This document shows positions 21,288 to 56,770 of a stretch of 64,000 nt of DNA, in pieces. The notes under the pieces were generated by a model that did not search any database, had not been told where the DNA came from, and was given only the letters and a program-made list of their open reading frames with translations. Positions within the stretch are counted from its first letter, which is position 1. Each line of letters opens with the position of its first letter. The position numbers and the translations under genes were made by a program. This stretch comes from an uncultured virus (IMG/VR IMGVR_UViG_3300010355_000481) (Duplodnaviria > Heunggongvirae > Uroviricota > Caudoviricetes > Crassvirales): IMG/VR virus record IMGVR_UViG_3300010355_000481; one strand, given 5' to 3'.

Positions 21288-22133
21288 CTACTTACTAGCT
21301 TCTAGTCCTATGGTATTAGGATAAGAATTATCAACCAATCCGATGATAGAACCTAAAAATGATCTACAAATTCCTTTTTTAGAAATGTGTATATGACATT
21401 CAGGTAATGAATGGGTTAACTCTTCTAATTCTGCTTGACAAGAAACTTTACCTAAAACTTGCATAACTACAGTTCTAGTTATAATTCCTAATTTGTGCAT
21501 ACGTCTTAATATTCTACCTCCGCTACTTTCAGACATTCCAAGTAGTCGGGCCATATGAGTTTTTCCAGATACGATGTATTGTTTATTTTTTGTTCGGGCA
21601 CGCTTCATCCAGTCGTCCGTAGTTATACCTAAAGCTGATGCACATTTTGCAACTTTCTTTAAGATACTGTTACGTTTCTTTTCGCTAGTAATTCTGTCAC
21701 CGATTCTATAATAAGCATCTTCTGTATCTTTCCATTTCTCGATACGGTATTGTTGTTGTTTAAAGTTTTTTAATACAAGACTATGTTGTATTTGGTGGTA
21801 TACTTTTTCCCATGTTAAAGGACCATTACATGTAAATCTTTTAAAACATTCAACGTATCTGTTGAACATTAAATTAGCTTCCCCCACGACACCATCATTT
21901 AGTATCGTACAGATATTGCTAAATTTAATTAAACGAATGGCACCTTTAGTTTGAATTAAAGTACCAGCTTTTAAACCACGGGATTTTATGCTTTGAAATC
22001 TTACTAAACCTAAACCTAAAGAAGCTGCAGCTTGATGATCCGTTTGAACACCATACTGCAATATACCATTATTCCTCATTTTAAGGAGGAAAGAGGCGTC
22101 TGTTAGTAATTTAAGTTTTAATAATTGTTGCAT
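21288..22133 (-). CDS. Basic HTH DNA-binding protein (possibly Rep-like); start revised to ATG 22133
   Basis: THMARLLGMSESSGGRILRRMHKLGII looks like a winged HTH; the longer predicted start runs through a terminator hairpin. Confidence 0.5.
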   Translation of the reverse strand: MQQLLKLKLLTDASFLLKMRNNGILQYGVQTDHQAAASLGLGLVRFQSIKSRGLKAGTLIQTKGAIRLIKFSNICTILNDGVVGEANLMFNRYVECFKRFTCNGPLTWEKVYHQIQHSLVLKNFKQQQYRIEKWKDTEDAYYRIGDRITSEKKRNSILKKVAKCASALGITTDDWMKRARTKNKQYIVSGKTHMARLLGMSESSGGRILRRMHKLGIITRTVVMQVLGKVSCQAELEELTHSLPECHIHISKKGICRSFLGSIIGLVDNSYPNTIGLEASK

Positions 22134-22167
22134 AAAAAAAAATCCTGAAGTATAACCTTCAGGATCC
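22134..22167 (-). terminator. Terminator directly upstream of the HTH gene ATG
   Basis: GGATCCTGAAG-GTTATA-CTTCAGGAT followed by a long U-tract. Confidence 0.7.
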
Positions 22168-22310
22168 TTTTTAGCCGAGACAAAATAATAATTGTTAATT
22201 ATTACAAATATAATTCTCTTTGTGGGAGAAATAAAATCTTTTTTAAACATTAACAATTCTATATTTTTGCTGCCTCGGCTAAGAGTAAACTAAGATATAC
22301 TTGTTACAAT

Positions 22311-22342
22311 CAAAGGTAAGTACTGGTATTGTATTTACCAAA
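22311..22342 (-). promoter_or_regulatory. Bacteroidota sigma-A type promoter
   Basis: TTTG-N20-TACCTTTG. Confidence 0.7.
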
Positions 22343-22360
22343 TATTTATTTATTTATTTG

Positions 22361-22450
22361 TGAGAGCAGTAGGAGTCGAACCTACAATCTTTACCATAAA
22401 GGACCTGATTTACAGTCAGGCAGCACAGACGCCATAGTGCTAATACTCCC
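22361..22450 (-). tRNA. tRNA-Tyr(GTA)
   Basis: CCTGA-CTGTAAA-TCAGG anticodon arm; long variable arm; GTTCGA T-loop. Confidence 0.9.
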
Positions 22451-22454
22451 AGAG

Positions 22455-22537
22455 AGGAAAATTGTGGACTCGAACCACAGTCCAATAAAGGACCTACACC
22501 CTTAGCAAGGGATCTCGAACCTATCGATTAACTTTCC
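22455..22537 (-). tRNA. tRNA-Ser(GCT)
   Basis: CCC-TTGCTAA-GGG anticodon arm; long variable arm. Confidence 0.8.
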
Positions 22538-22540
22538 ATG

Positions 22541-22629
22541 AGGTAGAGACAGGGTTCGAACCTGCACATCAGTTTTACCCGACATCACTGTTTTCAAGAC
22601 AGATAAGTACGCCAGCATTACGCTCTACC
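22541..22629 (-). tRNA. tRNA-Ser(TGA)
   Basis: CTGT-CTTGAAA-ACAG anticodon arm; long variable arm. Confidence 0.9.
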
Positions 22630-22633
22630 ATAG

Positions 22634-22715
22634 TGACCCTAGAGAGATTCGAACTCTCAATCCTCGCGGCAAGGGATTTTAAGTCCCTCATGTATCCCAG
22701 TTCCATCATAAGGCC
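22634..22715 (-). tRNA. tRNA-Leu(TAA)
   Basis: AGGGA-CTTAAAA-TCCCT anticodon arm. Confidence 0.9.
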
Positions 22716-22720
22716 AAGTG

Positions 22721-22764
22721 TACTCGTAGAGGGATTCGAACCCCCAAACCTTTCGGCACCGGTT
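22721..22764 (-). pseudogene. 3' half of an interrupted tRNA-Leu
   Basis: Variable arm, T-arm and acceptor strand TACGAGT-A; pairs with the 5' half at 23545-23580. Confidence 0.8.
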
Positions 22765-22765
22765 G

Positions 22766-22852
22766 TAAGAGAAGAGGGATTCGAACCCTCACGCTACTAT
22801 TATTTCGCTTTCGATTCTAAATCGAAATTGTCTACCATTCCAGCATTCTCCC
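22766..22852 (-). tRNA. tRNA-Leu(TAG), overlapping the 3' end of the HNH gene
   Basis: TTCGA-TTTAGAA-TCGAA anticodon arm; complete cloverleaf. Confidence 0.9.
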
Positions 22853-23492
22853 ATGCTTTTATCCATTTTCTAATACAATTATCAGATACCCCATATTCCT
22901 TACCTGTACCCACAAACCCTAACGAATTTATCTTTACTTTCAACACATCTAAACTTGGTCTATCTACTACTTTCCGTAAGTGGCTTCTACCTATCTTTTT
23001 ATACACCGCCTTTTTCCTTACAACTTTTTCTTTAATAGGTTTATCTTTTTTGAGCCTATCTCTAGTAACACTTGCATGACAATTTGGGCATAATATTTGT
23101 AAGTTACTTAATTCATTATTAAAATGATCACTATCAATATGATCAAGTTCTAATACTATAGGTTTACCTCCCCACTCTGATAAACAACATATCTCACATT
23201 TATATTCTTTGTAACCATCCCTTATTAATCTTTCCCTTAATTTAGCACTACTGGTTGGAAAATCTTTTTTACAGTACTCAAGAGCATCTTTTTTTGTAAA
23301 TTTTTTGTTTTTACGCCACCCTTGACCTAAAAAATAATCAGGGGTTTCTATTCCAAAAAATTTAGCTCTTCTAGTTAAATGAGACTGACTACCAGTCCTA
23401 GGGCGAATATTTAGTTTTCTACATACATCCGCCCACGATTTAGAACCAATTAAAGCCTTTTCTATTATTTCCTTTGTATATTTAATCTTCAT
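22800..23492 (-). CDS. HNH homing endonuclease
   Basis: CEIC...LELDHIDSDHFNNELSNLQILCPNCH; N- and C-terminal HTH-like segments. Confidence 0.9.
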   Translation of the reverse strand: MKIKYTKEIIEKALIGSKSWADVCRKLNIRPRTGSQSHLTRRAKFFGIETPDYFLGQGWRKNKKFTKKDALEYCKKDFPTSSAKLRERLIRDGYKEYKCEICCLSEWGGKPIVLELDHIDSDHFNNELSNLQILCPNCHASVTRDRLKKDKPIKEKVVRKKAVYKKIGRSHLRKVVDRPSLDVLKVKINSLGFVGTGKEYGVSDNCIRKWIKAWENAGMVDNFDLESKAK

Positions 23493-23544
23493 ACTAGTAT
23501 AGGTTATAATTTAAGATACAACATCTATACTAGAATCCAAAACA

Positions 23545-23580
23545 TAAAACTATCGTGTAGACCAATTCCACCATACGAGC
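23545..23580 (-). pseudogene. 5' half of the interrupted tRNA-Leu
   Basis: GCTCGTA-TGGTGGAATTGGTCTACACG-ATAGT-TTTA, broken at the anticodon. Confidence 0.8.
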
Positions 23581-23612
23581 AAAAAAAAATCCCCATCTGG
23601 AAAGACGGGGAC
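23581..23612 (-). terminator. Attenuator terminator of tRNA operon 1
   Basis: GTCCCCGTCT-TTCC-AGATGGGGAT plus U-tract abutting the first tRNA. Confidence 0.85.
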
Positions 23613-23638
23613 TAAAAATGCAAAATTAATATACATAG

Positions 23639-23701
23639 CTATCCCAGTCGATCCAATAGGCTCGATAACAGATAACTATATGACAAACGAAAATTCTTCA
23701 T
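23639..23701 (-). CDS. Leader peptide 1 MKNFRLSYSYLLSSLLDRLG
   Basis: 11 consecutive Leu/Ser/Tyr codons; lies between promoter and terminator. Confidence 0.85.
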   Translation of the reverse strand: MKNFRLSYSYLLSSLLDRLG

Positions 23702-23707
23702 TACAAT

Positions 23708-23739
23708 CAAAGATAGGTTACTCATTTTAAACTACCAAA
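23708..23739 (-). promoter_or_regulatory. Promoter of tRNA operon 1
   Basis: TTTG-N20-TATCTTTG. Confidence 0.75.
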
Positions 23740-23757
23740 TATTTCTTTACTTTTTTG

Positions 23758-23828
23758 TGGATACTGTTGGATTCGAACCAAATACTATCTCATTGCAAGT
23801 GAGAAGTGCTACCATCGCATCAGCCTCA
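23758..23828 (-). tRNA. tRNA-Ala(TGC)
   Basis: TCTCA-CTTGCAA-TGAGA anticodon arm; imperfect acceptor stem. Confidence 0.75.
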
Positions 23829-23832
23829 TGTG

Positions 23833-23905
23833 TAGGATTACCTGGATTTGAACCAGGAACGCTTGAGTATCAGTCAAGTATAATAACCAATTTTAATATA
23901 ATCCT
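23833..23905 (-). tRNA. tRNA-Ile(GAT)
   Basis: CTTGA-CTGATAC-TCAAG anticodon arm. Confidence 0.85.
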
Positions 23906-23910
23906 AAATG

Positions 23911-23984
23911 TTGATCCTCAGAGTCTCGAACTCTGTACCTCGCGATTATGAGTCGCACGCTCTAACCGGATGAGCTAAGGATCG
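23911..23984 (-). tRNA. tRNA with CAT anticodon, probably Ile2 (lysidine)
   Basis: GCGA-CTCATAA-TCGC arm and D-arm resemble bacterial tRNA-Ile2; C1:A72 mismatch leaves fMet possible. Confidence 0.75.
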
Positions 23985-23989
23985 ATATG

Positions 23990-24060
23990 CAGTCTATACG
24001 AGACTCGAACTCGTTTCCCCACCGTGACAAGGTGAGAGGATACCCATACCCCAATAGACT
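23990..24060 (-). tRNA. tRNA-Asp(GTC)
   Basis: TCACC-TTGTCAC-GGTGG anticodon arm. Confidence 0.85.
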
Positions 24061-24067
24061 ATTTTTG

Positions 24068-24139
24068 TACTCCTAACGGGAATCGAACCCGTGTCTGCTC
24101 ATGGAAAGTGAGCTATCCTAACCGCTAGAAGATAGGAGC
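24068..24139 (-). tRNA. tRNA-Glu(TTC)
   Basis: GCTCA-CTTTCCA-TGAGC anticodon arm. Confidence 0.9.
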
Positions 24140-24144
24140 AAATG

Positions 24145-24215
24145 TGCAGTATGTAGGAGTCAAACCTACGCAACTTGATTGGAAGTCAAGGGTGCTATCG
24201 TAACACTTATACTGC
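24145..24215 (-). tRNA. tRNA-Gly(TCC)
   Basis: CTTGA-CTTCCAA-TCAAG anticodon arm. Confidence 0.85.
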
Positions 24216-24280
24216 ATGTATATGTAATCACATATAAATTGATAGTTTATACTATTTTTATATGTAAAAACATATGATTG

Positions 24281-24362
24281 TAGCGGGGGTCCGATTCGAA
24301 CGGACGTCTTTTATTTTTCCAGGTTATGAGTCTGGTGACCTCAACCACTAGTCCACCCCGCC
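24281..24362 (-). tRNA. tRNA-Met(CAT) with enlarged A-rich variable loop
   Basis: CCAGA-CTCATAA-CCTGG anticodon arm; acceptor GGCGGGG/CCCCGCT. Confidence 0.8.
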
Positions 24363-24365
24363 ATG

Positions 24366-24439
24366 CGGACAACGTAGGGCTCGAACCTACTATCCTCTGT
24401 TTAACAAACAGCCGCTTATACCACTTAAGCTTCTCGTCC
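24366..24439 (-). tRNA. tRNA-Asn(GTT)
   Basis: CTGT-TTGTTAA-ACAG anticodon arm. Confidence 0.85.
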
Positions 24440-24449
24440 AGTATTTTTG

Positions 24450-24522
24450 CAGATCTGCAGGGATTCAAACCCTGATAAACTCCTTAGAACGAAGTTGTCC
24501 TATTCAGTTAAACGACAGATCT
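24450..24522 (-). tRNA. tRNA-Arg(TCT)
   Basis: ACTTC-GTTCTAA-GGAGT anticodon arm. Confidence 0.85.
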
Positions 24523-24528
24523 ATGTTG

Positions 24529-24601
24529 TTGGATGACAGAGAATCGAACTCTGGACTCCTCCTTGTAAGGGAGGGATGATTAACCACTTCACCATCTTCC
24601 A
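24529..24601 (-). tRNA. tRNA-Val(TAC)
   Basis: CCTCC-CTTACAA-GGAGG anticodon arm. Confidence 0.85.
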
Positions 24602-24610
24602 ATATTTTTG

Positions 24611-24683
24611 TACCCCTGCCGAGAGTCGAACTCGGCCCCACGGATTAAAAGTCCGTTGCCTACTACCAGTTTGCTACAAGGGT
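24611..24683 (-). tRNA. tRNA-Lys(TTT)
   Basis: ACGGA-CTTTTAA-TCCGT anticodon arm. Confidence 0.9.
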
Positions 24684-24689
24684 AAAAAT

Positions 24690-24721
24690 AAAAAACCCCG
24701 GTAGCTATCTGGCTCCGGGGT
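24690..24721 (-). terminator. Attenuator terminator of tRNA operon 2
   Basis: ACCCCGGAGC-CAGATA-GCTACCGGGGT plus U-tract. Confidence 0.85.
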
Positions 24722-24743
24722 CTTCTAAAAGTTTTATATACAC

Positions 24744-24809
24744 TTAGACATAAATAGACCCGGAGCCAGACTTCTCATCTGCCACTCTCCCGATAATATT
24801 TATGATCAT
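24744..24809 (-). CDS. Leader peptide 2 MIINIIGRVADEKSGSGSIYV (alternative GTG start at 24821)
   Basis: First 13 codons use exactly the ten amino acids of the downstream tRNAs. Confidence 0.85.
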   Translation of the reverse strand: MIINIIGRVADEKSGSGSIYV

Positions 24810-24839
24810 TATTTGTTGCACTATTTAAATTTTATGTTA

Positions 24840-24847
24840 CAAATGTA
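24840..24847 (-). promoter_or_regulatory. Promoter (-7 box) of tRNA operon 2
   Basis: TACATTTG. Confidence 0.6.
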
Positions 24848-24903
24848 ACGCTGTTTATAATTCAAGTTACATCTTTATTTGATAATAACAAATTTTTTGC
24901 TAA

Positions 24904-25104
24904 TTATTTTTTAAATTTCTTTTCGTAGACTTCTATCATCTTATTATGATAATTTAATAACCCAGTTTCATTAGTAATATTTCCATTAGGTATTCTGAAT
25001 TTATTTTTATCAATCTTTTTTACAAAAATATCTGATTCAGTTAAACCAGTAGTAATCAATACACTATTTACTGTTTTCTTTAATTTCTCTATACTTATAT
25101 TCAT
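24904..25104 (-). CDS. Hypothetical protein between tRNA operons
   Basis: 66 aa; own TATCTTTG box just upstream. Confidence 0.55.
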   Translation of the reverse strand: MNISIEKLKKTVNSVLITTGLTESDIFVKKIDKNKFRIPNGNITNETGLLNYHNKMIEVYEKKFKK

Positions 25105-25133
25105 AATGCAAAGATAAGTCTTTTATTTTAAAG

Positions 25134-25206
25134 TTTTCCAGACAGGACTCGAACCTGTACCCTCGAATCCGTAGTCCGAGATCCTATCCAATTAAACGAC
25201 AGGAAA
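25134..25206 (-). tRNA. tRNA-Arg(ACG)
   Basis: TCGGA-CTACGGA-TTCGA anticodon arm. Confidence 0.85.
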
Positions 25207-25212
25207 ATATAG

Positions 25213-25284
25213 AGTGACTAGCCGGGCTCGAACCGGTCGATAACTACCCCACAAGTAGTCGTGTTACCACTACACTATAGCCAC
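25213..25284 (-). tRNA. tRNA-His(GTG)
   Basis: ACTAC-TTGTGGG-GTAGT anticodon arm. Confidence 0.9.
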
Positions 25285-25286
25285 GG

Positions 25287-25357
25287 TTTTCCCACCTAGA
25301 TTCGAACTAGGAAATTCAGCTCCAAAAACTGACGTGTTACCGTTACACTATGAGAAA
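25287..25357 (-). tRNA. tRNA-Gln(TTG)
   Basis: TCAGT-TTTTGGA-GCTGA anticodon arm. Confidence 0.9.
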
Positions 25358-25362
25358 ATAAG

Positions 25363-25436
25363 AGCTTCTTTACAGACTCGAACTGTATCTATTCCTGATT
25401 ACAAGTCAGGTGCTGCACCATATCAGCATAAGAAGC
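25363..25436 (-). tRNA. tRNA-Thr(TGT)
   Basis: CCTGA-CTTGTAA-TCAGG anticodon arm. Confidence 0.9.
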
Positions 25437-25471
25437 AAAATTGTTTACCTCATCAATAAGGTAAACATTTG

Positions 25472-25548
25472 TGGTACAGACTGGATTCGAACCAGTACAA
25501 ATTTCCCAGGGCTTCAACCTAGAGCTCTACCGTTGGAGCTACTGCACC
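25472..25548 (-). tRNA. tRNA-Phe(GAA)
   Basis: CTAGG-TTGAAGC-CCTGG anticodon arm. Confidence 0.9.
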
Positions 25549-25553
25549 ATAAG

Positions 25554-25629
25554 AGACCGGAACCAGAATCGAACTGGCATTAAATAGGATTTGCAGTTCT
25601 ATGCCTTTTCCAATATTGGCTATCCGATC
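25554..25629 (-). tRNA. tRNA-Cys(GCA)
   Basis: TAGAA-CTGCAAA-TCCTA anticodon arm; U discriminator. Confidence 0.85.
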
Positions 25630-25633
25630 ATTG

Positions 25634-25704
25634 CGTGACGACAGGGATTCGAACCCCGATCAATGGTTTTGGAGACCACCATGCTACCGTTGCACCACCT
25701 TCAC
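25634..25704 (-). tRNA. tRNA-Trp(CCA)
   Basis: GTGGT-CTCCAAA-ACCAT anticodon arm. Confidence 0.9.
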
Positions 25705-25708
25705 AAGT

Positions 25709-25791
25709 CAAGCCAGGTTAGGTCATTACTCCTAATTTTTTACCTTAATCGGTACTGAGGATGTACTAGTATCTTTCCTCCCCTCCAGCTT
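25709..25791 (-). ncRNA. tRNA-sized cloverleaf-like RNA of unknown type
   Basis: Closing stem plus three hairpins; occupies a slot in the tRNA array; no canonical T-loop or anticodon loop. Confidence 0.45.
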
Positions 25792-25793
25792 TG

Positions 25794-25866
25794 TCTACAT
25801 GACCCGATTCGAACAGGCGAAAACTTGGTCCCAAACCAAGTGGATTAACCCCTCTCCCACATGTAG
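25794..25866 (-). tRNA. tRNA-Pro(TGG)
   Basis: CTTGG-TTTGGGA-CCAAG anticodon arm. Confidence 0.9.
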
Positions 25867-25871
25867 AAAAT

Positions 25872-25898
25872 AAAAAACCCTCCGTATTCGGGAGGGTT
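25872..25898 (-). terminator. Attenuator terminator of tRNA operon 3
   Basis: AACCCTCC-CGAATAC-GGAGGGTT plus U-tract. Confidence 0.85.
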
Positions 25899-25920
25899 CA
25901 GTTTAGTAATTATATGATAA

Positions 25921-25992
25921 CTACACTACATAACCCTCCAGCTTGGTAAACCAAGGTTGTTGAGGACATGTATGTGTGCGATTTGTTTTCAT
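25921..25992 (-). CDS. Leader peptide 3 MKTNRTHTCPQQPWFTKLEGYVV
   Basis: 12 consecutive codons using exactly R,T,H,C,P,Q,W,F, the downstream tRNA set. Confidence 0.85.
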   Translation of the reverse strand: MKTNRTHTCPQQPWFTKLEGYVV

Positions 25993-26031
25993 AAATTATA
26001 ATAAGCTTTAGATTTGCATCTAGCCTACAAT

Positions 26032-26062
26032 CAAAGATAAGTCAAGTTTTTATATTTCCAAA
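26032..26062 (-). promoter_or_regulatory. Promoter of tRNA operon 3
   Basis: TTTG-N19-TATCTTTG. Confidence 0.75.
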
Positions 26063-26135
26063 TATTTGTCCAGTTTTTTTCTAAATAAACTGGACATTTC
26101 TTTTGCGATAAGTATCGTAAAGTGATACATAACGC

Positions 26136-26163
26136 AAAAAAAGTCCCCCAAGAATGGAGGACT
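26136..26163 (-). terminator. Terminator of the structural operon
   Basis: AGTCCTCCATTCTTGGGGACTTTTTTT. Confidence 0.7.
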
Positions 26164-26209
26164 CTAAACTCACTTTAAACCAATAAAGAGGGAGTTTTAA
26201 CCAATAAGA

Positions 26210-26329
26210 TTAAGCCGCTTTTTTCATACGTGGTAATTGCGACCATTTAATGCTACAACCTCTACGTGGACAGCCAGTCGAAGCTTTAGTACGAGGTTTT
26301 GTTATTTTAAATAAGGTTTTCTTTTTCAT
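26210..26329 (-). CDS. Small basic protein (39 aa), absent from the ORF track
   Basis: MKKKTLFKITKPRTKASTGCPRRGCSIKWSQLPRMKKAA; fills the gap between fibre gene and terminator. Confidence 0.55.
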   Translation of the reverse strand: MKKKTLFKITKPRTKASTGCPRRGCSIKWSQLPRMKKAA

Positions 26330-26340
26330 ATTATATATTT

Positions 26341-28797
26341 TTATATTAAATCAATTGTTACACCTTCGAAACTGATATAGATATTTCTAGTAGTATTTAC
26401 ACTAGACATCATTACTCCAGTATGCGTTTCGTTTGTATCATCACGGTATGAAGTATAGTTTCTTTCTAATTGGAATACCGTACCTGCTTTTTTCAAGTTA
26501 AAATTAACGTGAGTATTAACCGAATCATTGATTACGACAGAAGAATAACTATACACTCCATGGCGTTGATAAATAGAATCTTTTAAACCGTAGTTAGCAT
26601 TACTACTCGGTAATGGGTATCCACATAATGATAAACCAGTTGCGTTGAATATATCATCTACGATAGTAGCTTCTGCAAAAGCAGCTGAAACAGAACCTAA
26701 CACGACGATCGATGGCCCAGAAGAGAAATCTTTATATACCCCACCTCTAAACTTCAATTTATTATTTTCTACGATATATTCTAAACCATCAGGTAACCAA
26801 GCATTTTGTAAAATACCAGAAGGTACCGCTTGGTATGAAGTACATGCAGTTGGTACATAACCCAATGTAGTTGTGTATACTGCAGAAACCCCAGTAGTTA
26901 ACAAAGAGCATTGTCTTGTGACTTGGATATTTAAAGTATGAGGGATCTTCGTACCGAAGAAAGGCATCGATACTACTGTCTTAGCGAAAGTAGGGTTATA
27001 CGTTGATACTAAGGCGATAACATGTGCAGGATTTCCAGATACGTTTGTATAATCTACTTTTACCGAAACCATATCATCATCGTTGGCGCCTAACCAACCA
27101 ACTAATAGGTTTGTATCATCTCCGTCATTTTGGATAACAAAACTAATTTCAGGAGCAGTTACTGTAGCACAAGGGTTTGTACTTTGTAATTTAAGATCTA
27201 TTAAACCACAATCGGTACCACTTGGATCCTGAACAATAGATATGCTATTATCAGAAGAAGTAAAGTGAATATCTTCGGAAGGGTTTAACATAATTGAAGC
27301 CCATTCGCCATCACCGTTAGTACATTTTGCACGAACACGTGCACCTAAAATATCACAAGAAATACTAGGGAAAGCCGTCATATTATATTTAAGTATACCA
27401 GAAGCTACACTTACATAATTAGCATCACCATTTATCCATGTTAATGGTGAACCGGTAGTACCTCTAAATTCAACTTCATAATCGGTATTAATACTTGTAT
27501 GACCAGAAAATTCAAATATAAAGTTAGTCCCATCATTGTAAAGACGTAAACCGTACGCAAGTAAAGGAGATTGTACAAATACTCCCCCGTCGGTACCAGC
27601 TTGTGCAGCATTACAAGTATCTGTCGAATATGAAACAGGGCTACTTGGTACATATAAACCATTACCTGTATTCACCAAAATATTACCGCCAGTAAGTGTA
27701 TCTATATTTACATCGGCTTTAATACCTGCAGCATCACTTGATAAAGTAACGGAAGAAGTATTTTGGAAAATAACATCAGATTTAATGATATTACCTGGAA
27801 GGATAGTCATGTTTACAGTATCAGTATCTGATATCGAAACAGCACCAGAAGCCATCGGTACGTACAACCCAGTCGGCAATACTTGTAAGGCATTCGTACC
27901 CGATGGATCAAGTATAACTTGAGATGACAAATTATATCCACCTAATATAGGCGTTAAAGTATGACCTACTGATGGGCTATTTGCCGTAGTAAGTAATGTA
28001 TTTCCAGAAGGGCAACATCCGATGTTTATACCATTAGGGCCGTAAGTAATTGGCGCAGCACTTGCAGGGTCAAATCTAACTTGAGCACTTACTTGATAAT
28101 TATTACCTGAAGGAGTTACTGTTATATCGACTGAAGAAGTATCTAAACCAGAAACTGTAGTTGCAGGACCAGAAGTTGTTGGTGGTGCAACATATAAACC
28201 ATTAGGTCCAACTTGGATAGCATTACCAGGAGTTGTATCTATTTTAACAAGAGATTGGACTGAATATCCACCTACTGTAGGAAGCACGGTAGTATCTACT
28301 GTATTTGTATCGATACCTACTAATGTTGTACTTGCCGTAGACGGTGATGGACATGCCATATATAAACCATCTGACAAAATTTGTAAACAGTTATTAGAAG
28401 TAGCTGACAATCTTACGGCTGCAACTAATTGTTCATTTAGGCCGACATTTGTATTAAGGATACTGACAGAACTGCTACCTACAATCTTATCACTTAGGTA
28501 GCCTGATGTACTATCAGATGCAGAAGCTTTTACCCTAATATCGGTAGCTGTTACGACGATATTTCCACAAAGTTTTTGTGCGAAGCTTTCAAATACATCT
28601 GTAAATGAAGTCCCTTTTAAAATAGTATCGGCACAAACCGTTAAATCTTTCGATAAAAATAAACAATCACCCCAGTTAGGGTGTAAACATCCTGTAGTAC
28701 AAGGAGTTGGAGGGCAAGGTTGTGGGTTACAATTACAAGGACAAGGCGTACCACAAGGGTCTGGGCAGCATTTATTACAAGTTGTGTGGTGAGACAT
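26341..28797 (-). CDS. Fibre/spike structural protein
   Basis: 818 aa; Cys/Pro-rich N-terminus; repeated N(A/C)(L/I)QxxxxGLY units. Confidence 0.65.
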   Translation of the reverse strand: MSHHTTCNKCCPDPCGTPCPCNCNPQPCPPTPCTTGCLHPNWGDCLFLSKDLTVCADTILKGTSFTDVFESFAQKLCGNIVVTATDIRVKASASDSTSGYLSDKIVGSSSVSILNTNVGLNEQLVAAVRLSATSNNCLQILSDGLYMACPSPSTASTTLVGIDTNTVDTTVLPTVGGYSVQSLVKIDTTPGNAIQVGPNGLYVAPPTTSGPATTVSGLDTSSVDITVTPSGNNYQVSAQVRFDPASAAPITYGPNGINIGCCPSGNTLLTTANSPSVGHTLTPILGGYNLSSQVILDPSGTNALQVLPTGLYVPMASGAVSISDTDTVNMTILPGNIIKSDVIFQNTSSVTLSSDAAGIKADVNIDTLTGGNILVNTGNGLYVPSSPVSYSTDTCNAAQAGTDGGVFVQSPLLAYGLRLYNDGTNFIFEFSGHTSINTDYEVEFRGTTGSPLTWINGDANYVSVASGILKYNMTAFPSISCDILGARVRAKCTNGDGEWASIMLNPSEDIHFTSSDNSISIVQDPSGTDCGLIDLKLQSTNPCATVTAPEISFVIQNDGDDTNLLVGWLGANDDDMVSVKVDYTNVSGNPAHVIALVSTYNPTFAKTVVSMPFFGTKIPHTLNIQVTRQCSLLTTGVSAVYTTTLGYVPTACTSYQAVPSGILQNAWLPDGLEYIVENNKLKFRGGVYKDFSSGPSIVVLGSVSAAFAEATIVDDIFNATGLSLCGYPLPSSNANYGLKDSIYQRHGVYSYSSVVINDSVNTHVNFNLKKAGTVFQLERNYTSYRDDTNETHTGVMMSSVNTTRNIYISFEGVTIDLI

Positions 28798-40964: not shown

Positions 40965-43733
40965 TTACTTTTTATCGTATTTGTTCTTATTGATACGAGC
41001 TACTTGTACTTTCTTTTCTTCGATCGCATTACGTGTCGCCAATGTCTTTTCTTGTAAAAGTTGGTTCTTTTTATCCATGGTTACTTTGTGCTGATCCATC
41101 ATTTGTTTAGAGTTCAAAGTCTTGTCAAAGTTTTGTTGTTTATTGAACTCTTTTAAATTTTCAAGTGAGTCAATTTGCTGATTTGCATTAGCATCAGTTT
41201 GTAAACCACCAAGTTCTTGGATCTCTGCAATAAGTACTTTAGTCTCAAGTTCACGTTCTTTCCAGTAGTTTTCGTTATCCATTTCTTTTTGACGTTGCTC
41301 TGCTTGGGCTCTTTGTTGCTCCTGTAGCATTTTCATATCATGCTCTTGTTTCGCTTGAGCTTCTTGGCGACGCTTATCTTCTGCTTTTTCTAACTGCTCG
41401 ATAATTTGAGAAGGGCTTTGAGTATTATAGATTTTCATATAATCACTCATCTCCGCCCCGACAGTATTAATCTTTTCGGCCATATTCTGCATTTTCTCTA
41501 CAAGTGCTTTCGTAGCCGCAGAACTTTGGCAGAATAATTTTAAATCTGCAAGTAACAATTCTTTACCTTCGATCTCGAACAAAACGTTCTCACCATCAGT
41601 ATTCGTATAACTTAATCGTACAGTTGGTTTAGTAGATGCTAAGTATTGTTCGGCATTTAACATTAATTGACGAACTCTAGGCATAAACTGGTGTAAATGC
41701 TTCTCAAACAAATATTCAGTTTGAGCATATGAATTCTCCATCGAAGCCTGTACGCCCGTAGCTGATTCAGAAGCAAGAGTTGCTCCAGTTCGTTGAGGCG
41801 TAATTCCCAATAGAGAAAAAGCCATATTCTTATAATATTCCCCTAATTGGATATTTCTTAAGATATCTGGGGTATTACTAAAGTCAAGTACTTGGAAATG
41901 TGAGAAACCTGAACCTTGAGGATTATTACCAGGTGATCCGTCCATCAATGCTACGTTAGTGTTACGAATAACTTCTAACCACTTATTCATACTATTCTTA
42001 CCCCATGTACCATCAAATGATTTTTTAGGAATATAGTTCTGATCAATCATGATAACTTTACCATTTGCAAGGTTATTACCTAGCATATCTAAGTTTTGGT
42101 TATTTACGATATTGAAACAAATCTGAGAAGGACTTAATTTTCGTACGAGAGATACAGATTTAGTATTACGATCACTCATTGTATACCCTTCGATAGGAAT
42201 AAGACCGATCTGTAAATCTATAGGATCTCCGCTGATATAAATAGCATCGCCATTTACAGAAGATGCCCCAGGATAATTTCCAGCACCAAGTAATCTACGA
42301 GAGATTTTTGCACCGAAACGAATTTGTGGTTTCCAATACCAATCAATATGTTCGCCGTGGATAAGATTTTCTTTTGTTTTCTTTTGCGTGATAGAATTAT
42401 CATATACTGGCTTATCCGTTATACGGTAATCTTCATCAATTATTTCTACGATAGCTATACCATCTAATCCTTTTTTGGTAAGAGTACCTTGTCTAACATA
42501 AGAACGCCAGTAGGTCTCGGTCACACGAAAAAGATTACTCTTAAGCATAGAATCCAAATCATTCTGATACGTATTACGCTTAAGGGATTGTTCGTATATA
42601 CTTAACGAGGATTTAAGTTTTTCGTTTAGTAAGGCATTCTCGTACGTAACGTCGGTGATATTTTCTGGATATGGTTTAGAGAAATCTGTCCAATTGGATT
42701 TGTCTCCGATATGTGTACCAGCTACGGCATTCACCAGGTGATGCTGATCGGTTATACTATTTACGTTATGACTAGTTTGAAGCAGACGAAAATCAACTTC
42801 ACTCATCATATGTGAATAATTCTTAATAATATCAGATAGAGGTAAATAAATCTGGCGTCCTACATAATTACTTTCCGATGCCCAACGTTGATCAGGGGCC
42901 TTATGTCTAAATACATGTTTAGGGTTCCAAACTTCGGGTAAAATATCATCCTCAAGTGTACGCACATGCATATATGTATGATCAGATACCACGACGTCAC
43001 GGAAAGAAAGAACTTGTAATTCTTTCATATTAAACCTCATATCATCCCAAACTATCATACGATTGGCCCATTGTTCCGCCAATGTTTCGTATGTTTTAAA
43101 CTTTAACTCGGCATCAATTAATTGTTGTGCATAATTAGTTTCTTCCTGGATTTGTTGTTGATTTTCTTCTGTAGGTTGGCCATACTTGGCCGCAATATCA
43201 TCTTGAGCTTTCTTAGACAAGATTTGCATAATATTGTCTTTCTTGTACTTACTCTTTTTGTTTACGGTGAATTCATCTACGCCACGTACGATAATACGCA
43301 TATCACGTTTTAAGTATTCTCCGACTAGTAAATTTACGAACGGCGGAATAAGCGGGAAAAACATGATAGGAAGTTGAGTATCTTCACTTTCCTTGATAAC
43401 ATCTTTGACATAATCACCAAACTCTTCAGAATCGCACCCATAATCTTCAGGAGTTAATATACCTTCGGCCATATCGTAATCCTTAGATAAACCTTTCCAT
43501 TGTAAGGATAGATCATGATAAGCAATACGTTCAAACCAGTCTAAGTTCCATTTCTTCCATTCGTCGTCTTTCTCGAATTTCGAGATCATTTGAATAGGGG
43601 TAATGGCCCAAAGTTTAGCTACATTGATACTCGAAGTCCACCCATTGAGTATTTGGCGCGAAGTCACAACTAAGGAACTCTTAGCTGTCTGGGTAGGTAA
43701 CGGTACTTGTTTTGCTTTCTTGGATTTAGCCAT
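40965..43733 (-). CDS. Portal protein
   Basis: 922 aa; PLIPPFVNLLVGEY and LGITPQRTG motifs; C-terminal coiled coil; follows terminase. Confidence 0.9.
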   Translation of the reverse strand: MAKSKKAKQVPLPTQTAKSSLVVTSRQILNGWTSSINVAKLWAITPIQMISKFEKDDEWKKWNLDWFERIAYHDLSLQWKGLSKDYDMAEGILTPEDYGCDSEEFGDYVKDVIKESEDTQLPIMFFPLIPPFVNLLVGEYLKRDMRIIVRGVDEFTVNKKSKYKKDNIMQILSKKAQDDIAAKYGQPTEENQQQIQEETNYAQQLIDAELKFKTYETLAEQWANRMIVWDDMRFNMKELQVLSFRDVVVSDHTYMHVRTLEDDILPEVWNPKHVFRHKAPDQRWASESNYVGRQIYLPLSDIIKNYSHMMSEVDFRLLQTSHNVNSITDQHHLVNAVAGTHIGDKSNWTDFSKPYPENITDVTYENALLNEKLKSSLSIYEQSLKRNTYQNDLDSMLKSNLFRVTETYWRSYVRQGTLTKKGLDGIAIVEIIDEDYRITDKPVYDNSITQKKTKENLIHGEHIDWYWKPQIRFGAKISRRLLGAGNYPGASSVNGDAIYISGDPIDLQIGLIPIEGYTMSDRNTKSVSLVRKLSPSQICFNIVNNQNLDMLGNNLANGKVIMIDQNYIPKKSFDGTWGKNSMNKWLEVIRNTNVALMDGSPGNNPQGSGFSHFQVLDFSNTPDILRNIQLGEYYKNMAFSLLGITPQRTGATLASESATGVQASMENSYAQTEYLFEKHLHQFMPRVRQLMLNAEQYLASTKPTVRLSYTNTDGENVLFEIEGKELLLADLKLFCQSSAATKALVEKMQNMAEKINTVGAEMSDYMKIYNTQSPSQIIEQLEKAEDKRRQEAQAKQEHDMKMLQEQQRAQAEQRQKEMDNENYWKERELETKVLIAEIQELGGLQTDANANQQIDSLENLKEFNKQQNFDKTLNSKQMMDQHKVTMDKKNQLLQEKTLATRNAIEEKKVQVARINKNKYDKK

Positions 43734-43791: not shown

Positions 43792-46014
43792 TCATGAAAC
43801 ACGACGTCTCGAGTTAAAATATTGACGTTTCGGTAATGAGATACGTACCAGCTGTTCTTCCTTCTCTTCTGTTTCATCGAACTCTGATAATATACCTGTA
43901 TTGATATACATCTCTACGATAGATAGTACCAAACCAAATGACACCAATCTATCGGTATTCATCCCTTTTTCGTAACCAAGACATTCTCGAAGTAAACCAA
44001 TGTCTTTAATACGCTCTGCACCATATATAGTTCTGACAGTTTCTCCTTGAGGGGTGCGTATAACATCTAATATTTCCGACACGTAATCTTTAATCTTATT
44101 CATGATTAAAGTACGGAGTTTACCATTAGGTGCCATATAAATACCATAACCTCTCTGAACACTGGATTCTACCATAACATCCTCGCCCCAGATATTCTTA
44201 GCTTCCGTATCTGTCATTAGATACTTAGGCGCCAAGTTCTTTAACCGCATGTGATCGATAAATGAGGTTACATTGTTCTCGACGATAGCATAAGCATTAT
44301 ATAGACGTAATAAGTACTCGGCTTGCTCATTAGTTTGTTTACGGTCGTCATAACGACCTATATACCAGGCAACTATCTTATAACCTTCGGTCCTTAACTT
44401 AAATTCTCCCGTTTCTGGGTCTTTATATTTAATCTTGGTAATATTCTCCATGATATAAATACAAAACAATGATTCAGAGGTAGTTGTAGTGTCTGTCATG
44501 ATAGGGTCAACACCTGCAAAATATCGTCTAGCCGCTGGTTCAGACTCCCCTCGATCGACACGAGGCAGTTCTAAGATCTGTACGGCACCTCTCTTGTCAT
44601 CATCTGCTTTTCCTTTAAATGGGAATTCATCAATAGGTTTACGATCAGTATGGCCCCATTTAATTAAGCCGTCTTTATCTTCGTACAATTCACAATTAAT
44701 GATATTAGGTTTTTGTACGACCAATCGATCTTCGGTATTCTTTAAGATACGTTTAGGAAAGAAACCGTCTTTTCTTTGTGCAAATCCCTCTTCTGGACTG
44801 GTGATCTTTTGAGATAAGTCAAGTTGCTTAAGTTCGGAAGCTTTATTTGATAATTTTGCTTTTTCTTTCTCCGATTCGATAAACGCCATGGTTACTTCAA
44901 GGTCTGAATTACCATTTTCGTCGTAGAAAGGTTTATTTGTTATAGGGCAGGTACCTTCAAGGTTGTATGCCTCGGAAATAAACAAACAGCAAGGTTTACC
45001 TGCACGAAGAGGATCTTTGTCCCAGATATTTTCGACCGGGAGAAAGTCATAATCATCTGGCGCATAGAAGATAGTCTTTAAATCTTGGGCATCTTCAAGC
45101 TCACCGAGGGCTCCTGATACGATAATAGTACCAGTCATTAAACTACCTTTTTTCAAGGCAGGTGTAATATACCCCAAAGTTTTAAGCATGGTCGGGGTGA
45201 TACCTGCTTCTTCATAGAAAAATATAGTTTGGGCACCACCTACACCACTCTCAGGGCTTTTCTGGAATGTCGTACCTTTAATCAAAGAGTCATTACCAAC
45301 ATATCCACCATCTTTCAGCTCGATACGTTCGATCCATTCGAGCATTTTGGTTTTGGAAGGACCACTTTTAAAGGCCCCTTGTGTGTTTTTATCGCAGTGA
45401 GCTTTATAACGTTCGAGGAATAACCAAGATTTTTTTACTTTTGTTTCATCGATGGCACCGATCGTGTTGATCGTACCCTCAAACCAAAGATATGACCAAA
45501 ATAGGATAGCCATAATTTTTAAAGAATAACCTTTCTGACGAGCTTTTAACACTCCGACATGTTTACCCTTAAGCATAGCCAAGATAACATAGTGGAAAAA
45601 GTACAAGTCATTATCATGTACCAAGGCGAATGATTTCTTCGCACGAATATCATCCATGAACGGACAAAAATTCAGATAGAAGTGGTAAAATCCAGGTACA
45701 TACATATCATCATAGATGACACCTTTCTGACATTTTTCTTTTTCGAACGTCCAAAACTTAATATAAGTCGTAGATCCTTTGGGACCTTTTTGGTACATAC
45801 CCCCATCTAAACCAGAACGTGGGCAAGACTTGGCATATGTCATACCAGTTTCTTTCCACTTCTTCACATTCTTTAAATTGTAGTTCCCCGGCGTTTTAAA
45901 ACAAGATTCGACGTAAGTAGTAAATTCTTCTTTCGTTTCGAATAGCCTATCAACCCAAGTATCGGTGGTTGAATTATAGGAAGGGACTCTAAGGGGGAAT
46001 TCTAAAAATCTCAT
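43792..46014 (-). CDS. terL: Terminase large subunit
   Basis: LKARQKGYS Walker A; FFYEEAG Walker B; FAGVDP nuclease motif; NTDRLVS. Confidence 0.92.
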   Translation of the reverse strand: MRFLEFPLRVPSYNSTTDTWVDRLFETKEEFTTYVESCFKTPGNYNLKNVKKWKETGMTYAKSCPRSGLDGGMYQKGPKGSTTYIKFWTFEKEKCQKGVIYDDMYVPGFYHFYLNFCPFMDDIRAKKSFALVHDNDLYFFHYVILAMLKGKHVGVLKARQKGYSLKIMAILFWSYLWFEGTINTIGAIDETKVKKSWLFLERYKAHCDKNTQGAFKSGPSKTKMLEWIERIELKDGGYVGNDSLIKGTTFQKSPESGVGGAQTIFFYEEAGITPTMLKTLGYITPALKKGSLMTGTIIVSGALGELEDAQDLKTIFYAPDDYDFLPVENIWDKDPLRAGKPCCLFISEAYNLEGTCPITNKPFYDENGNSDLEVTMAFIESEKEKAKLSNKASELKQLDLSQKITSPEEGFAQRKDGFFPKRILKNTEDRLVVQKPNIINCELYEDKDGLIKWGHTDRKPIDEFPFKGKADDDKRGAVQILELPRVDRGESEPAARRYFAGVDPIMTDTTTTSESLFCIYIMENITKIKYKDPETGEFKLRTEGYKIVAWYIGRYDDRKQTNEQAEYLLRLYNAYAIVENNVTSFIDHMRLKNLAPKYLMTDTEAKNIWGEDVMVESSVQRGYGIYMAPNGKLRTLIMNKIKDYVSEILDVIRTPQGETVRTIYGAERIKDIGLLRECLGYEKGMNTDRLVSFGLVLSIVEMYINTGILSEFDETEEKEEQLVRISLPKRQYFNSRRRVS

Positions 46015-51382: not shown

Positions 51383-52266
51383 TATTGTTGTTGATAAGGG
51401 GCCTCTTCGGGGGCTACTTATCTTCTTATACAGCACATTAACGGCGTAAATGCTCATAATTATACAGTAAACCGTTGAATATCAGGGTATTATGTCAAAA
51501 TATCAACCTCGGGAGTATACCAAACAGTAAACATTGATTTTTGTACTCTTACACAAATTGAACAGAACCCTTGATAGGCTTGAATCGTCAAAAATAGGGG
51601 TACTAACGTACCTAAATTGAGGTAATTATATAACTAATTGAATATCAATACATTATGAAAGAGATAGATATATGGTATATCTTATGCAATAAGCTAGAGA
51701 AGGTAAAATGTAGACCATATATGGTAGAATTACCAGTAAGGAGAGAAATAACTAAGCGAATTGAGATAGAAATGCTCGGTAATATAGGCTTAATTCACCA
51801 AAATATATACAGAAATGTGTCTTGAAAGGGGCTAAAAGTGGCCCTCTGAGGTAGGTAGAGAAGATTAAAACCCTTGATAGGAGCGTATTTGATATACCTC
51901 AGTTCAAAAAAAGTTGCATCAACACAATGAGGTAATTGGTAATATGTGAATAGATGAATTATCTTATATTCTATTCTCTTTATCTCTCTTATAGTTCTTT
52001 ATACAGATGCTGATAAGATCTACAGTCGTTAACCTTTAAACCAATAATATGAAACGAATAAAATTCTCTCTCTATCAGTATATGAATAAATATAAAGGAT
52101 ATACTCATAGATCTGAATATAACCATATTAGTGATATACTATACGAATATTCATATGTTGGTATTATATACTATGATGTAATTATAGTTCCTAAATTTCG
52201 TAAGATATAATAAGATCCACAGTCGTCAAACAATTAATCATTAATCAACAACAAAACAATATTATC

Positions 52267-52530
52267 ATGAATATAACAGATATTATATTAGTAATGAAGA
52301 CAGTAAGAGAATTAGATCTTAATCAAGGTTTAATTATGTCACATGCCGAAGAATCAATTGCTATAGTTAAAAGAGAAGATACTAAAGGTATTTACTATAG
52401 TATTAACCATAGAATAGATGGTAAAACACAAAAACCTTATAATGATGACGACATTATGATGTTGTTATTAGTTAACAAAGAAAGATTTACACATAAATCT
52501 TATACAACTAAAATCGTAAACTTTAAATAA
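52267..52530 (+). CDS. Hypothetical protein
   Basis: 87 aa; A-rich initiation region. Confidence 0.6.
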   Translation: MNITDIILVMKTVRELDLNQGLIMSHAEESIAIVKREDTKGIYYSINHRIDGKTQKPYNDDDIMMLLLVNKERFTHKSYTTKIVNFK

Positions 52531-52543
52531 AACAATATACATT

Positions 52544-52960
52544 ATGCAAAAGAAATCATATGTAATCAAAGAAGGTGTAGTTAACCTCGAATTAACTAAT
52601 AAAGAGTATTCACAATACTTATTATTTAAACTTGGATGTTCACCTAGCGTATTAGGAAAACCTTTTGATGATATTATACCTACTATTATTAAAGGTATTG
52701 GGAATGAATATCCTGATTTATCTATTCCGGAAGTTTTAGATAAATTAGCAAATGTTCAAAAGGTATTAGAATTATACTGTCCGACAATTGATCCTATACA
52801 AACAGAAATTGCTCCAGGAGGATTTAAAAATACACCTGAAGGTATAGTAGAAAGTGCTAAACAACCATTACAAGGTAAATATGATGAAAATGGTAAACTT
52901 ATCGCGGAAGAATCTGCAGAAGGCCCTAAAGTTATAGGTAAAATCGAACCCTTTAGATAA
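52544..52960 (+). CDS. Hypothetical protein
   Basis: 138 aa. Confidence 0.65.
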   Translation: MQKKSYVIKEGVVNLELTNKEYSQYLLFKLGCSPSVLGKPFDDIIPTIIKGIGNEYPDLSIPEVLDKLANVQKVLELYCPTIDPIQTEIAPGGFKNTPEGIVESAKQPLQGKYDENGKLIAEESAEGPKVIGKIEPFR

Positions 52961-53219
52961 ATGTACTTATATACCAAAAATGGTTACATATGTATATGAA
53001 TATGCTAAATCTGTAGGAGACGGTAAAAACGAATATTGGTTTGTTAATCAATGGGGAAATAAACAATACATATCTGAAGAAGAATACCATATCATTAACG
53101 ATACAGTAATAGCTTCACAAATGCATTAATAATATAAAGAGAGGAAGGATCCAGGCGTCGTTGCACTGTCCAGTTTCTGGTCGCCGACCTTGGTTTCCTC
53201 TCTTTAATTTAAAAACAAC

Positions 53220-53513
53220 ATGAAAGAAATAATAATAATACTTTTAGGTATATGTACACTTATATCTATGGTATATAATCCAAATGTAGAACATCAATGT
53301 ATTGATCAAACACATCTTACATGTGATGGTAATTGTGATTGCGATGGATTAGGGTGCGGAGAATATATTATACATCCTAAGTATTGTATGTGTGAATTCT
53401 GTATCGAAGCAACTGATTCGGGTGTTAGAAATTATACTCTCAAAGAAAATAAAGATAGTATATTTATATTCAACGAAGAGAATTTATTAATCGAATCATA
53501 TAAACTACGATAA
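53220..53513 (+). CDS. Membrane-anchored Cys-rich small protein
   Basis: Hydrophobic N-terminus; CDGNCDCDGLGC. Confidence 0.55.
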   Translation: MKEIIIILLGICTLISMVYNPNVEHQCIDQTHLTCDGNCDCDGLGCGEYIIHPKYCMCEFCIEATDSGVRNYTLKENKDSIFIFNEENLLIESYKLR

Positions 53514-56225: not shown

Positions 56226-56369
56226 AAAATATTATAATCCTTTTTATCCTTATATGTGTGCTATGTTCGTGTCAACGACAATACACATACCAATGTACTT
56301 CTCCCAAAGGAGATGTATACTATAAGTCCATGAACGATAGTCAGTATTCTATCTACATGTCCAATATCG

Positions 56370-56747: not shown

Positions 56748-56770
56748 ATCTTAAAAACAAAAAAAACAAG

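Follow-up and report, generated by a model that had tools for sequence, protein, structure and literature searches.

A probable ribosome-mediated transcription attenuator ahead of an eleven-gene transfer RNA block in a crAss-like phage

In the genome of an uncultured virus of the Crassvirales (IMG/VR record IMGVR_UViG_3300010355_000481), of which a stretch of 64,000 nucleotides (nt), here called the window, was analysed, a short open reading frame (ORF) and an intrinsic terminator stand immediately before a block of eleven transfer RNA (tRNA) genes. This leader, referred to as unit 2, quite probably acts as a ribosome-mediated transcription attenuator of the trp type, which gates the eleven-gene block by means of a sensor with one or two codons for each tRNA, so that the synthesis of these tRNAs would be driven by demand. 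The observation itself is real and far beyond chance. It is supported in silico by the match of codons to tRNAs, by three alternative helices, by the conservation of these helices, and by their dependence on ribosome position in a thermodynamic model. That ribosome and polymerase race kinetically, and that the unit responds to the supply of tRNA, is presumed.

Sensor codons and alternative helices of unit 2

The sensor run consists of fourteen consecutive codons (I M I I N I I G R V A D E K), all decodable by the tRNAs of block 2 and together representing all eleven of them (Table 1). A preliminary description of the region had listed the codons ATG ATC ATA AAT ATT ATC GGG AGA GTG GCA GAT GAG AAG and had matched them to the eleven downstream tRNAs; these 13 codons, counted from ATG, are found exactly at 24809-24771, and they also represent 11/11 tRNAs. 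Runs of consecutive codons readable by the tRNAs of a given block were all scored in six frames of the 64-kb window, with strict wobble (G34 reads C or U, U34 reads A or G, and cat reads ATG or ATA). Run 24812-24771 (IMIINIIGRVADEK) ranks first among 29,251 runs for coverage of block 2, with 11 of 11 tRNAs, and the runner-up covers 8 of 11. The top run for each of the three tRNA blocks of the phage is a short ORF located directly upstream of its own block and on the correct strand.

Short ORFs are abundant in A+T-rich DNA (122 ORFs of at least 20 amino acids in 10 kb), and a random one could happen to lie beside an ordinary terminator. Such a coincidence is extremely improbable, since the first rank among 29,251 is attained at the predicted place and three times in one window, the antiterminator described below is matched by none of 500 shuffles, and the unit is kept in a relative and paralleled in an unrelated phage.

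The correspondence extends to the anticodons. The Arg codon is AGA ahead of tRNA-Arg(tct) in unit 2 and CGC ahead of tRNA-Arg(acg) in unit 1; the earlier claim that AGA fits Arg(TCT) agrees with the tct gene found in block 2 by ARAGORN. Leader 2 also includes ATA, and block 2 carries a cat tRNA that resembles E. coli tRNA-Ile(CAT). Among E. coli genes, those nearest to this second cat tRNA (23910-23984) in sequence are named tRNA-Ile by RefSeq, and the one such gene examined has the anticodon CAT (ARAGORN), a likeness that supports the proposed Ile2 identity. The other cat tRNA (24280-24362, minus strand) is 83 nt long with an unusually long variable region, and no match to it was found in 5,426 E. 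coli genomes. In leader 2, the codons for the U34 tRNAs of Gly, Val, Glu, and Lys end in G, which is the minority choice in the long ORFs of the phage (13,181 codons; shares within the amino acid of 0.14 for GGG, 0.08 for GTG, 0.20 for GAG, and 0.25 for AAG). The rarer G-ending codons at these four tRNAs would fit a sensor tuned to slow decoding.

The ORF of leader 2 is presumably translated. It was proposed earlier that GTG 24821 serves as the start codon, with ATG as an internal Met. This proposal is strengthened by the relative described below, in which ATG occupies the column of GTG 24821 and ATA occupies the column of ATG 24809; therefore, the conserved start appears to be the upstream GTG/ATG column, and the ATG of the window would then be an internal Met. 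The stop codon is 10 nt past region 2 and 23 nt ahead of the terminator stem.

The bases that follow the sensor (region 2) had been described as complementary to the terminator over 15 bp with one bulge. This complement is indeed present: 24770-24756 pair with 24723-24708 in 15 base pairs (bp) with one bulged C, at -29.1 kcal/mol. In 500 dinucleotide shuffles of the 95-nt upstream segment, the antiterminator energy was -12.5 +/- 2.5 kcal/mol, and 0/500 matched the observed value. Folding of the leader, suggested earlier as a check, predicts for the ribosome-free 167-nt leader a 1:2 hairpin together with the terminator (-47.4 kcal/mol, z -3.84, 0/200 shuffles as stable), in which the antiterminator strand would be sequestered.

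The effect of a ribosome was modelled by masking 30 nt (A site -15 to +14) codon by codon and computing the pair probability of the terminator; the model is thermodynamic only. With the A-site codon counted from ATG, the terminator probability of unit 2 falls from 0.11 at codon 1 to 0.00-0.01 over codons 2-9, climbs to 0.42 at codon 10, and stays at 1.0 from codon 11 through to the stop. Overall, the structural predictions of a trp-type attenuator that are testable in silico are all supported for unit 2, which, in the folding and footprint models, appears to combine a short ORF, regulatory codons, an intrinsic terminator, an exclusive antiterminator, 1:2 sequestration, and dependence on ribosome position.

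The proposed mechanism can be potentially described as follows. The host RNA polymerase would start upstream and transcribe the leader. If the leader is untranslated, region 1 would pair with region 2, the 3:4 terminator would form, and transcription would stop 7 nt before tRNA-Lys. A fast ribosome that reaches the stop codon would mask region 2, again with the terminator as the outcome. A ribosome slowed at any of the sensor codons, when the matching charged tRNA is scarce, would occupy region 1 and leave region 2 free; the free region 2 may then pair with region 3 before region 4 is made, in which case no terminator would form and the eleven tRNA genes would be transcribed. The net effect would be a negative feedback, with tRNA synthesis tracking the decoding demand for exactly the tRNAs of block 2. 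Two sister units would govern the other two tRNA blocks of the phage in the same way.

Table 1. Features of unit 2, its sister units, and the tRNA blocks in the window, with the leaders of Cellulophaga phage phi40:1 (no window positions)
Feature	Position in the window	Strand	Description
Region 1	24777..24807	-	Sensor codons; pair with 24771-24747 in the ribosome-free minimum free energy fold
Region 2	24756..24770	-	5' strand of the antiterminator, within the last ORF codons (S G S G S)
Region 3	24708..24723	-	Shared strand; pairs with region 2 in the antiterminator and with region 4 in the terminator
Terminator hairpin	24696..24720	-	6-bp G+C stem, bulged A (24702), 3-bp upper stem, 6-nt loop; -15.8 kcal/mol
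U-tract	24684..24695	-	Six T, one A, five T; ends directly before tRNA-Lys
Leader ORF	24744..24821	-	25 codons from GTG 24821-24819 (21 from ATG 24809-24807); stop TAA 24746-24744
Sensor run	24771..24812	-	14 codons, all decodable by block 2; 11/11 tRNAs represented
Candidate -7 box, unit 2	24840..24847	-	TAnnTTTG type, upstream of the leader; -33 element weak
tRNA block 1	25866-25133	-	Pro Trp Cys Phe Thr Gln His Arg(acg)
tRNA block 2	23757..24683	-	Lys ttt, Val tac, Arg tct, Asn gtt, cat (83 nt), Gly tcc, Glu ttc, Asp gtc, cat (Ile2-like), Ile gat, Ala tgc
tRNA block 3	22852-22360	-	Leu tag, Leu taa, Ser tga, Ser gct, Tyr gta
Sister unit 1	25875..25992	-	Leader MKTNRTHTCPQQPWFTKLEGYVV and terminator 25899-25875, before Pro Trp Cys Phe Thr Gln His Arg(acg)
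Sister unit 3	23588..23725	-	Leader (M..)MKNFRLSYSYLLSSLLDRLG and terminator 23613-23588; HNH gene, then Leu Leu Ser Ser Tyr
phi40:1 leader MKTIMNIATDIRTKGVK...			Before Ala (by eye), Lys, Ile(gat), Gly, Met, Asp, Thr, Val, Arg(tct), Ile(tat); correspondence partly by eye
phi40:1 leader ...YNNFSWYSNCSFSSYN...			Before Tyr, Ser, Ser, Asn, Trp, Phe, Cys; 7/7 covered
phi40:1 leader ...LLHQEPLEQLRLP...			Before Pro, Glu, Gln, His, Leu, Arg(acg)

Sister units, a divergent relative and Cellulophaga phages

The best run for block 3 is LSYSYLLSSLL (23686-23654), which covers 5/5 tRNAs over 11 codons with strict wobble, and the next covers 4/5 over 6 codons; the leader of unit 3 contains both cognate codons of each Leu and each Ser tRNA. 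For block 1 the best run is RTHTCPQQPWFT (25980-25945), with 8/8 tRNAs under lenient wobble. A plus-strand run at 51972-52004, which ties with that of unit 3 under lenient wobble, was taken as a chance match, as it lies in pyrimidine-rich DNA with no terminator or tRNA behind it in the stretch read. The antiterminator pairing of units 1 and 3 was reached in 0/500 shuffles each. In the footprint model, the terminator probability of unit 1 is 0.00-0.04 at codons 4-14 and at least 0.75 at codons 1-2 and from codon 15. Unit 3 behaves as a partial switch, with 0.01-0.51 at codons 6-12, 0.67 at codon 13, and at least 0.93 at codons 1-5 and from codon 14 to the stop. A ribosome stalled at the non-cognate codons with which leaders open (K T N; K N F R) leaves region 2 unfreed in the model.

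These data bear on the idea that the switch is real and reports general translation status, such as ribosome availability, starvation charging, or an early/late timer, the codon list merely making any shortage count. The structure would react to ribosome position whatever delays the ribosome, the first codons of the leaders (Q Q; K T N; K N F R) are non-cognate, and the relative described below has kept a Lys codon with no tRNA-Lys gene in its block. However, the 20 amino acids are divided among the three leaders in exactly the way in which they are divided among the tRNA blocks, a partition for which a general sensor has no need. The match also holds at the level of the anticodon (AGA versus CGC, and both codons for each Leu and Ser tRNA in unit 3), and a stall on the opening codons is predicted not to free region 2. 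Therefore, a general status sensor is considered unlikely, and a sensor of the individual tRNAs is preferred.

A degenerate pattern of the sensor peptide matched one IMG/VR contig. Between this relative and the window, blastn aligns only a 173-nt tRNA stretch (85.5%), and the protein upstream of the array is 40% identical. The leader of the relative, MQQIININIIGRVADEKSGYRDIYV, keeps the sensor peptide (IININIIGRVADEK) with 3/4 of the G-ending codons of leader 2, and the peptide encoded by region 2 differs (SGSGS in the window and SGYRD in the relative). When the 15 antiterminator pairs are aligned, 8 are invariant, 2 are changed on both sides (C:G to A:U and G:C to A:U), and the 5 outer pairs are open in the relative, whose own antiterminator is a perfect 10-bp helix of -21.3 kcal/mol (0/500 shuffles as good). 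With the sequences read by eye, the two altered region-3 bases also pair with A residues of region 4 in the relative, and one of these is the counterpart of the A that is bulged in the window. The terminator has a stability of -15.8 kcal/mol in the window and -15.0 kcal/mol in the relative, and the 1:2 hairpin is likewise present in the fold of the relative. A leader similar to that of unit 3 (MNKTSLYSYLLLSPPTKQR) is found in the relative directly before Leu-Leu.

The tRNAs of block 2 in the relative are, according to ARAGORN, Arg, Asn, cat, Gly, Glu, Asp, and Ile; Val(tac) and Ala(tgc) were read by eye, with Rfam matches of 24.3 and 49.2 bits, respectively. The first tRNA of the block (8408-8486 of the relative) has a hybrid look, since its 5' end corresponds to tRNA-Lys of the window and its 3' end to tRNA-Val; by eye its anticodon is tac, and ARAGORN makes no call. 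The cat tRNA of the relative, at the position of 24280-24362 in the window, shows an apparent C1-A72 mismatch by eye. Such a mismatch is a feature of bacterial initiator tRNAs.

Further occurrences were searched for in several ways. Degenerate and exact DNA patterns in IMG/VR returned only the contig of the relative, and the 818-amino-acid neighbour protein alone had no relative in IMG/VR. With this protein aligned with the orthologue of the relative as the query, the contig of the relative was found again, together with another contig, which stops short of the array and contains no tRNA. A metagenome scan yielded one stretch, which is identical to the window across its 630 bases and hence not independent. 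Five public sequencing runs contain at most 0.23 of the sampled words, and four of these runs assembled to short, low-depth contigs that are probably DNA. One of the strain variants in such runs alters only the bulged A of the terminator, a change that is structurally neutral.

The same architecture occurs three times in Cellulophaga phage phi40:1 (Callevirus), a phage of an unrelated lineage that was noticed through the likeness of its tRNA-Lys to that of the window. The 5' arms of its terminators are complementary to the last codons of the ORFs, and 0, 2, and 5 of 500 shuffles reach the observed pairing. In the footprint model, the first unit of phi40:1 switches with ribosome position as the units of the window do. 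Calle_1 is 96-97% identical to phi40:1 and adds little; its leader run covers 6/7 tRNAs. Searching for the leader pattern of phi40:1 in IMG/VR gave only two matching contigs. In the Callevirus records (phi40:1, phi38:1, and Calle), the leaders are annotated as hypothetical proteins or unannotated. An excerpt of PMC5335546 describes phi38:1 as having no RNA polymerase of its own; therefore, the host polymerase would read these terminators.

Overall, the antiterminator pairing exceeds that of shuffled sequences in 8/8 units of three phages (0-5 of 500 shuffles reach the observed value), and region 2 always lies in the last codons of the ORF. Another possibility is that the small ORF and the hairpins act elsewhere, in processing or stability of the tRNA precursor or through a functional peptide, and that the hairpin with its U-tract is only the terminator of the upstream gene; a 66-amino-acid ORF upstream (25104-24904) would need such a terminator, and the low-depth public runs showed no RNA 3' ends. 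This is quite improbable, since it is the base pairing of region 2 that is conserved in the relative and not its peptide, the terminator lies 7 nt ahead of the first tRNA and is overlapped by an alternative helix of -29 kcal/mol, and the same triad is found in 8/8 units of three phages.

A script that flags ORFs upstream of tRNAs was applied to other tRNA-rich phages (T5, crAss001, S-CRM01, and KVP40) and flagged 0 ORFs in them. In the window it flags units 1 and 2, and it misses unit 3 because this unit is more than 300 nt from its tRNAs, with an HNH endonuclease gene in between. The idea that T5 has mini-ORFs matching its tRNAs was not borne out, as the script flags none in the T5 array; an excerpt of the review PMC4810235 is silent on such mini-ORFs.

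Weighing of the attenuator reading and comparison with known systems

Several observations weigh against reading unit 2 as an attenuator. Within the unit itself, the last two or three cognate codons of leader 2 lie past the point at which the footprint model restores the terminator. A simple consensus terminator scan does not contain the unit 2 hairpin, and the same scan lists units 1, 3, and 26165-26140; the omission is probably due to the bulge and to the 6-nt loop above a 3-bp upper stem. The promoter of unit 2 is weak in part, with a good -7 box and a weak -33 box. In unit 1, the coverage of 8/8 is obtained only if U34 tRNAs read four-codon boxes, as CCT and ACC break the run under strict rules.

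Other points concern the comparisons. Four pattern scans and one alignment-based search gave a single independent relative of unit 2. The covariation comes from two sequences only, and its shuffle control is not significant (135/500), a control that is powerless because there are only two sequences. No tRNA-Lys was found in the relative by ARAGORN or Rfam, though its leader has the Lys codon AAA, and the gene at the Ile2 position of the relative was not called as a tRNA by ARAGORN even at 70% thresholds. Finally, 2/3 units of phi40:1 have no equilibrium switch in the model and show weaker 2:3 pairing only.

As regards the promoter, a candidate -7 box of the TAnnTTTG type, the Bacteroidota motif, is located upstream of leader 2, whose promoter is a putative one. 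The arrangement TTTG-N19/20-TATCTTTG is found ahead of units 1 and 3, and it fits the Bacteroidota -33/-7 promoter type. A sigma-70 scan at unit 2 gave a 9/12 match only, at 24857-24829. An alternative start for the unit 2 transcript may be a TATCTTTG box at 25109-25116, before the 66-amino-acid ORF. The relative has a TATATTTG box upstream of its leader. In crAss001, a box almost identical to TATCTTTG lies at about 1640-1681, just before the first tRNAs (Gln and Arg tct). Behind it comes an ORF of four codons, M I R R, two of which are AGA; there is no terminator, and hence it is not the same device.

Leader-peptide attenuation is textbook knowledge for amino-acid operons, as in trpL, hisL, pheL, leuL, and thrL, and in the multivalent leaders of ilvGMEDA and ilvBN in enterobacteria. 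Unit 2 resembles these attenuators in that it has a short ORF, which is translated in the known cases, with regulatory codons, the 1:2, 2:3, and 3:4 helices, an intrinsic terminator, and an antiterminator that stalling would favour. However, it would regulate tRNA genes rather than biosynthetic enzymes, and whereas the operon leaders sense one to three amino acids, unit 2 lists about one codon for each of 11 tRNAs (10 amino acids), with resolution at the level of the anticodon. It also differs from the enterobacterial attenuators in belonging to a phage of a probable Bacteroidota host, and the Rfam leader families (His_leader, Trp_leader, Phe_leader, Leu_leader, Thr_leader, and others) have no match in 24684-24850 at an expectation value (E) <= 1.

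The pheM leader of pheST, through which the genes of phenylalanyl-tRNA synthetase are attenuated by means of Phe codons, is similar in that a component of the translation machinery is controlled by leader-peptide attenuation through the decoding of a codon class. In contrast to unit 2, pheM controls a synthetase, senses one amino acid, and is cellular and not viral. T-box riboswitches also link the state of one particular tRNA to transcription past a terminator, and they too employ an antiterminator. However, the T-box itself binds the uncharged tRNA, by means of a specifier codon and the T-box sequence; it requires no ribosome and senses one tRNA per element, whereas unit 2 has an ORF and a sensor that would depend on translation; no T-box is among the 30 Rfam matches listed for 22000-26500. 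The Callevirus leaders share with the present system the promoter, the mini-ORF that lists the amino acids of the block, region 2 in the last codons, the terminator, the tRNA block, and the number of three units per genome. They differ in that the phage family is unrelated, the tRNAs are grouped otherwise, the leader sequences are dissimilar, and 2/3 of the phi40:1 antiterminators are weak in the model.

Control of tRNA genes is generally placed at the promoter and in processing. Full-text searches, with subscription journals and the older Russian work on T5 not covered, gave no description of leader-peptide attenuation of tRNA genes for phages or cells. The unit would work in the manner of the classical leaders, from which it differs in its tRNA-gene target and in its sensor of up to 11 tRNAs in a single leader. 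If this reading is true, the phage gauges the decoding speed of the codons that its own tRNAs read and makes those tRNAs on demand, which would give a direct and testable account of tRNA dosing during infection. In that case, the small 'hypothetical' ORFs of tRNA arrays, annotated or missed as in the Cellulophaga phages, would merit re-examination, and unit 2 would offer a naturally multiplexed way of sensing tRNA supply that could serve as a reporter. Since the same design is present in the cultured phi38:1/phi40:1-Cellulophaga system, the idea is testable already.

A broader scheme, which is possible and put forward with considerable doubt, suggests that phage tRNA arrays are self-regulating 'tRNA homeostats'. 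Their multiplexed leaders would test every tRNA of the block, so that the loss of any one reopens transcription, and the G-ending codons would also report the modification state of U34. In this scheme tRNA loss may result from poor host supply, from host anticodon nucleases, or from other tRNA-cleaving defences, and the leaders would represent a new regulatory class and a built-in counter to tRNA-targeting immunity in several unrelated phage lineages.

The tRNA array and its surroundings

The window is phage DNA. PHROGs profiles identified the large terminase (43792-46014), the portal (40965-43733), the major head protein, and virion proteins, all on the minus strand, and crAss-like phages of Bacteroidota have terminases about 26% identical to that of the window. 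A search of INPHARED gave no near relative of the window, the matches being limited to pieces of tRNA and of HNH endonuclease. The G+C content of the window is about 0.35. In 52000-64000 it falls to 0.27-0.31 and the ORFs move to the plus strand, as in a different genome module.

From 25866 to 22360, the minus strand carries 24 tRNA genes, which serve all 20 amino acids and are arranged in three blocks. ARAGORN called 21 of these at default settings and 24 at 90% thresholds, and Rfam confirms most of them; for block 2, the corresponding numbers are 8/11 and 11/11. With the tRNA model of Rfam, Asn and Gly of block 2 scored 42.6 and 55.8 bits, and Ala scored 26.6 bits, which is below the 29-bit cut-off. 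Except for Arg, each amino acid is confined to one block. Block 3 is composed of Leu, Ser, and Tyr only, which are the tRNAs with a long variable arm (class II).

A gene for an HNH homing endonuclease (23492-22800, minus strand; PHROG 10822, E 4e-43) is located between the terminator of unit 3 (23588) and its tRNA block. At its 3' end the gene runs into tRNA-Leu(tag) (22765-22852), and in the relative tRNA-Leu is only 64 nt past the terminator. Since the gene is inserted behind the unit 3 terminator, the endonuclease would be under the control of the attenuator.

Just upstream of unit 1, an ORF of 39 amino acids (26209-26328, minus strand) with a C-x4-C motif (MKKKTLFKITKPRTKASTGCPRRGC...) is followed by a strong terminator at 26140-26165. 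On this terminator, which is separate from unit 2, the Phe_leader model of Rfam gave a match at 26135-26208 of 26.9 bits (cut-off 55, E 0.2), the sole hit to a leader family. At the corresponding place in the relative, there is a similar ORF of 36 amino acids with a terminator.

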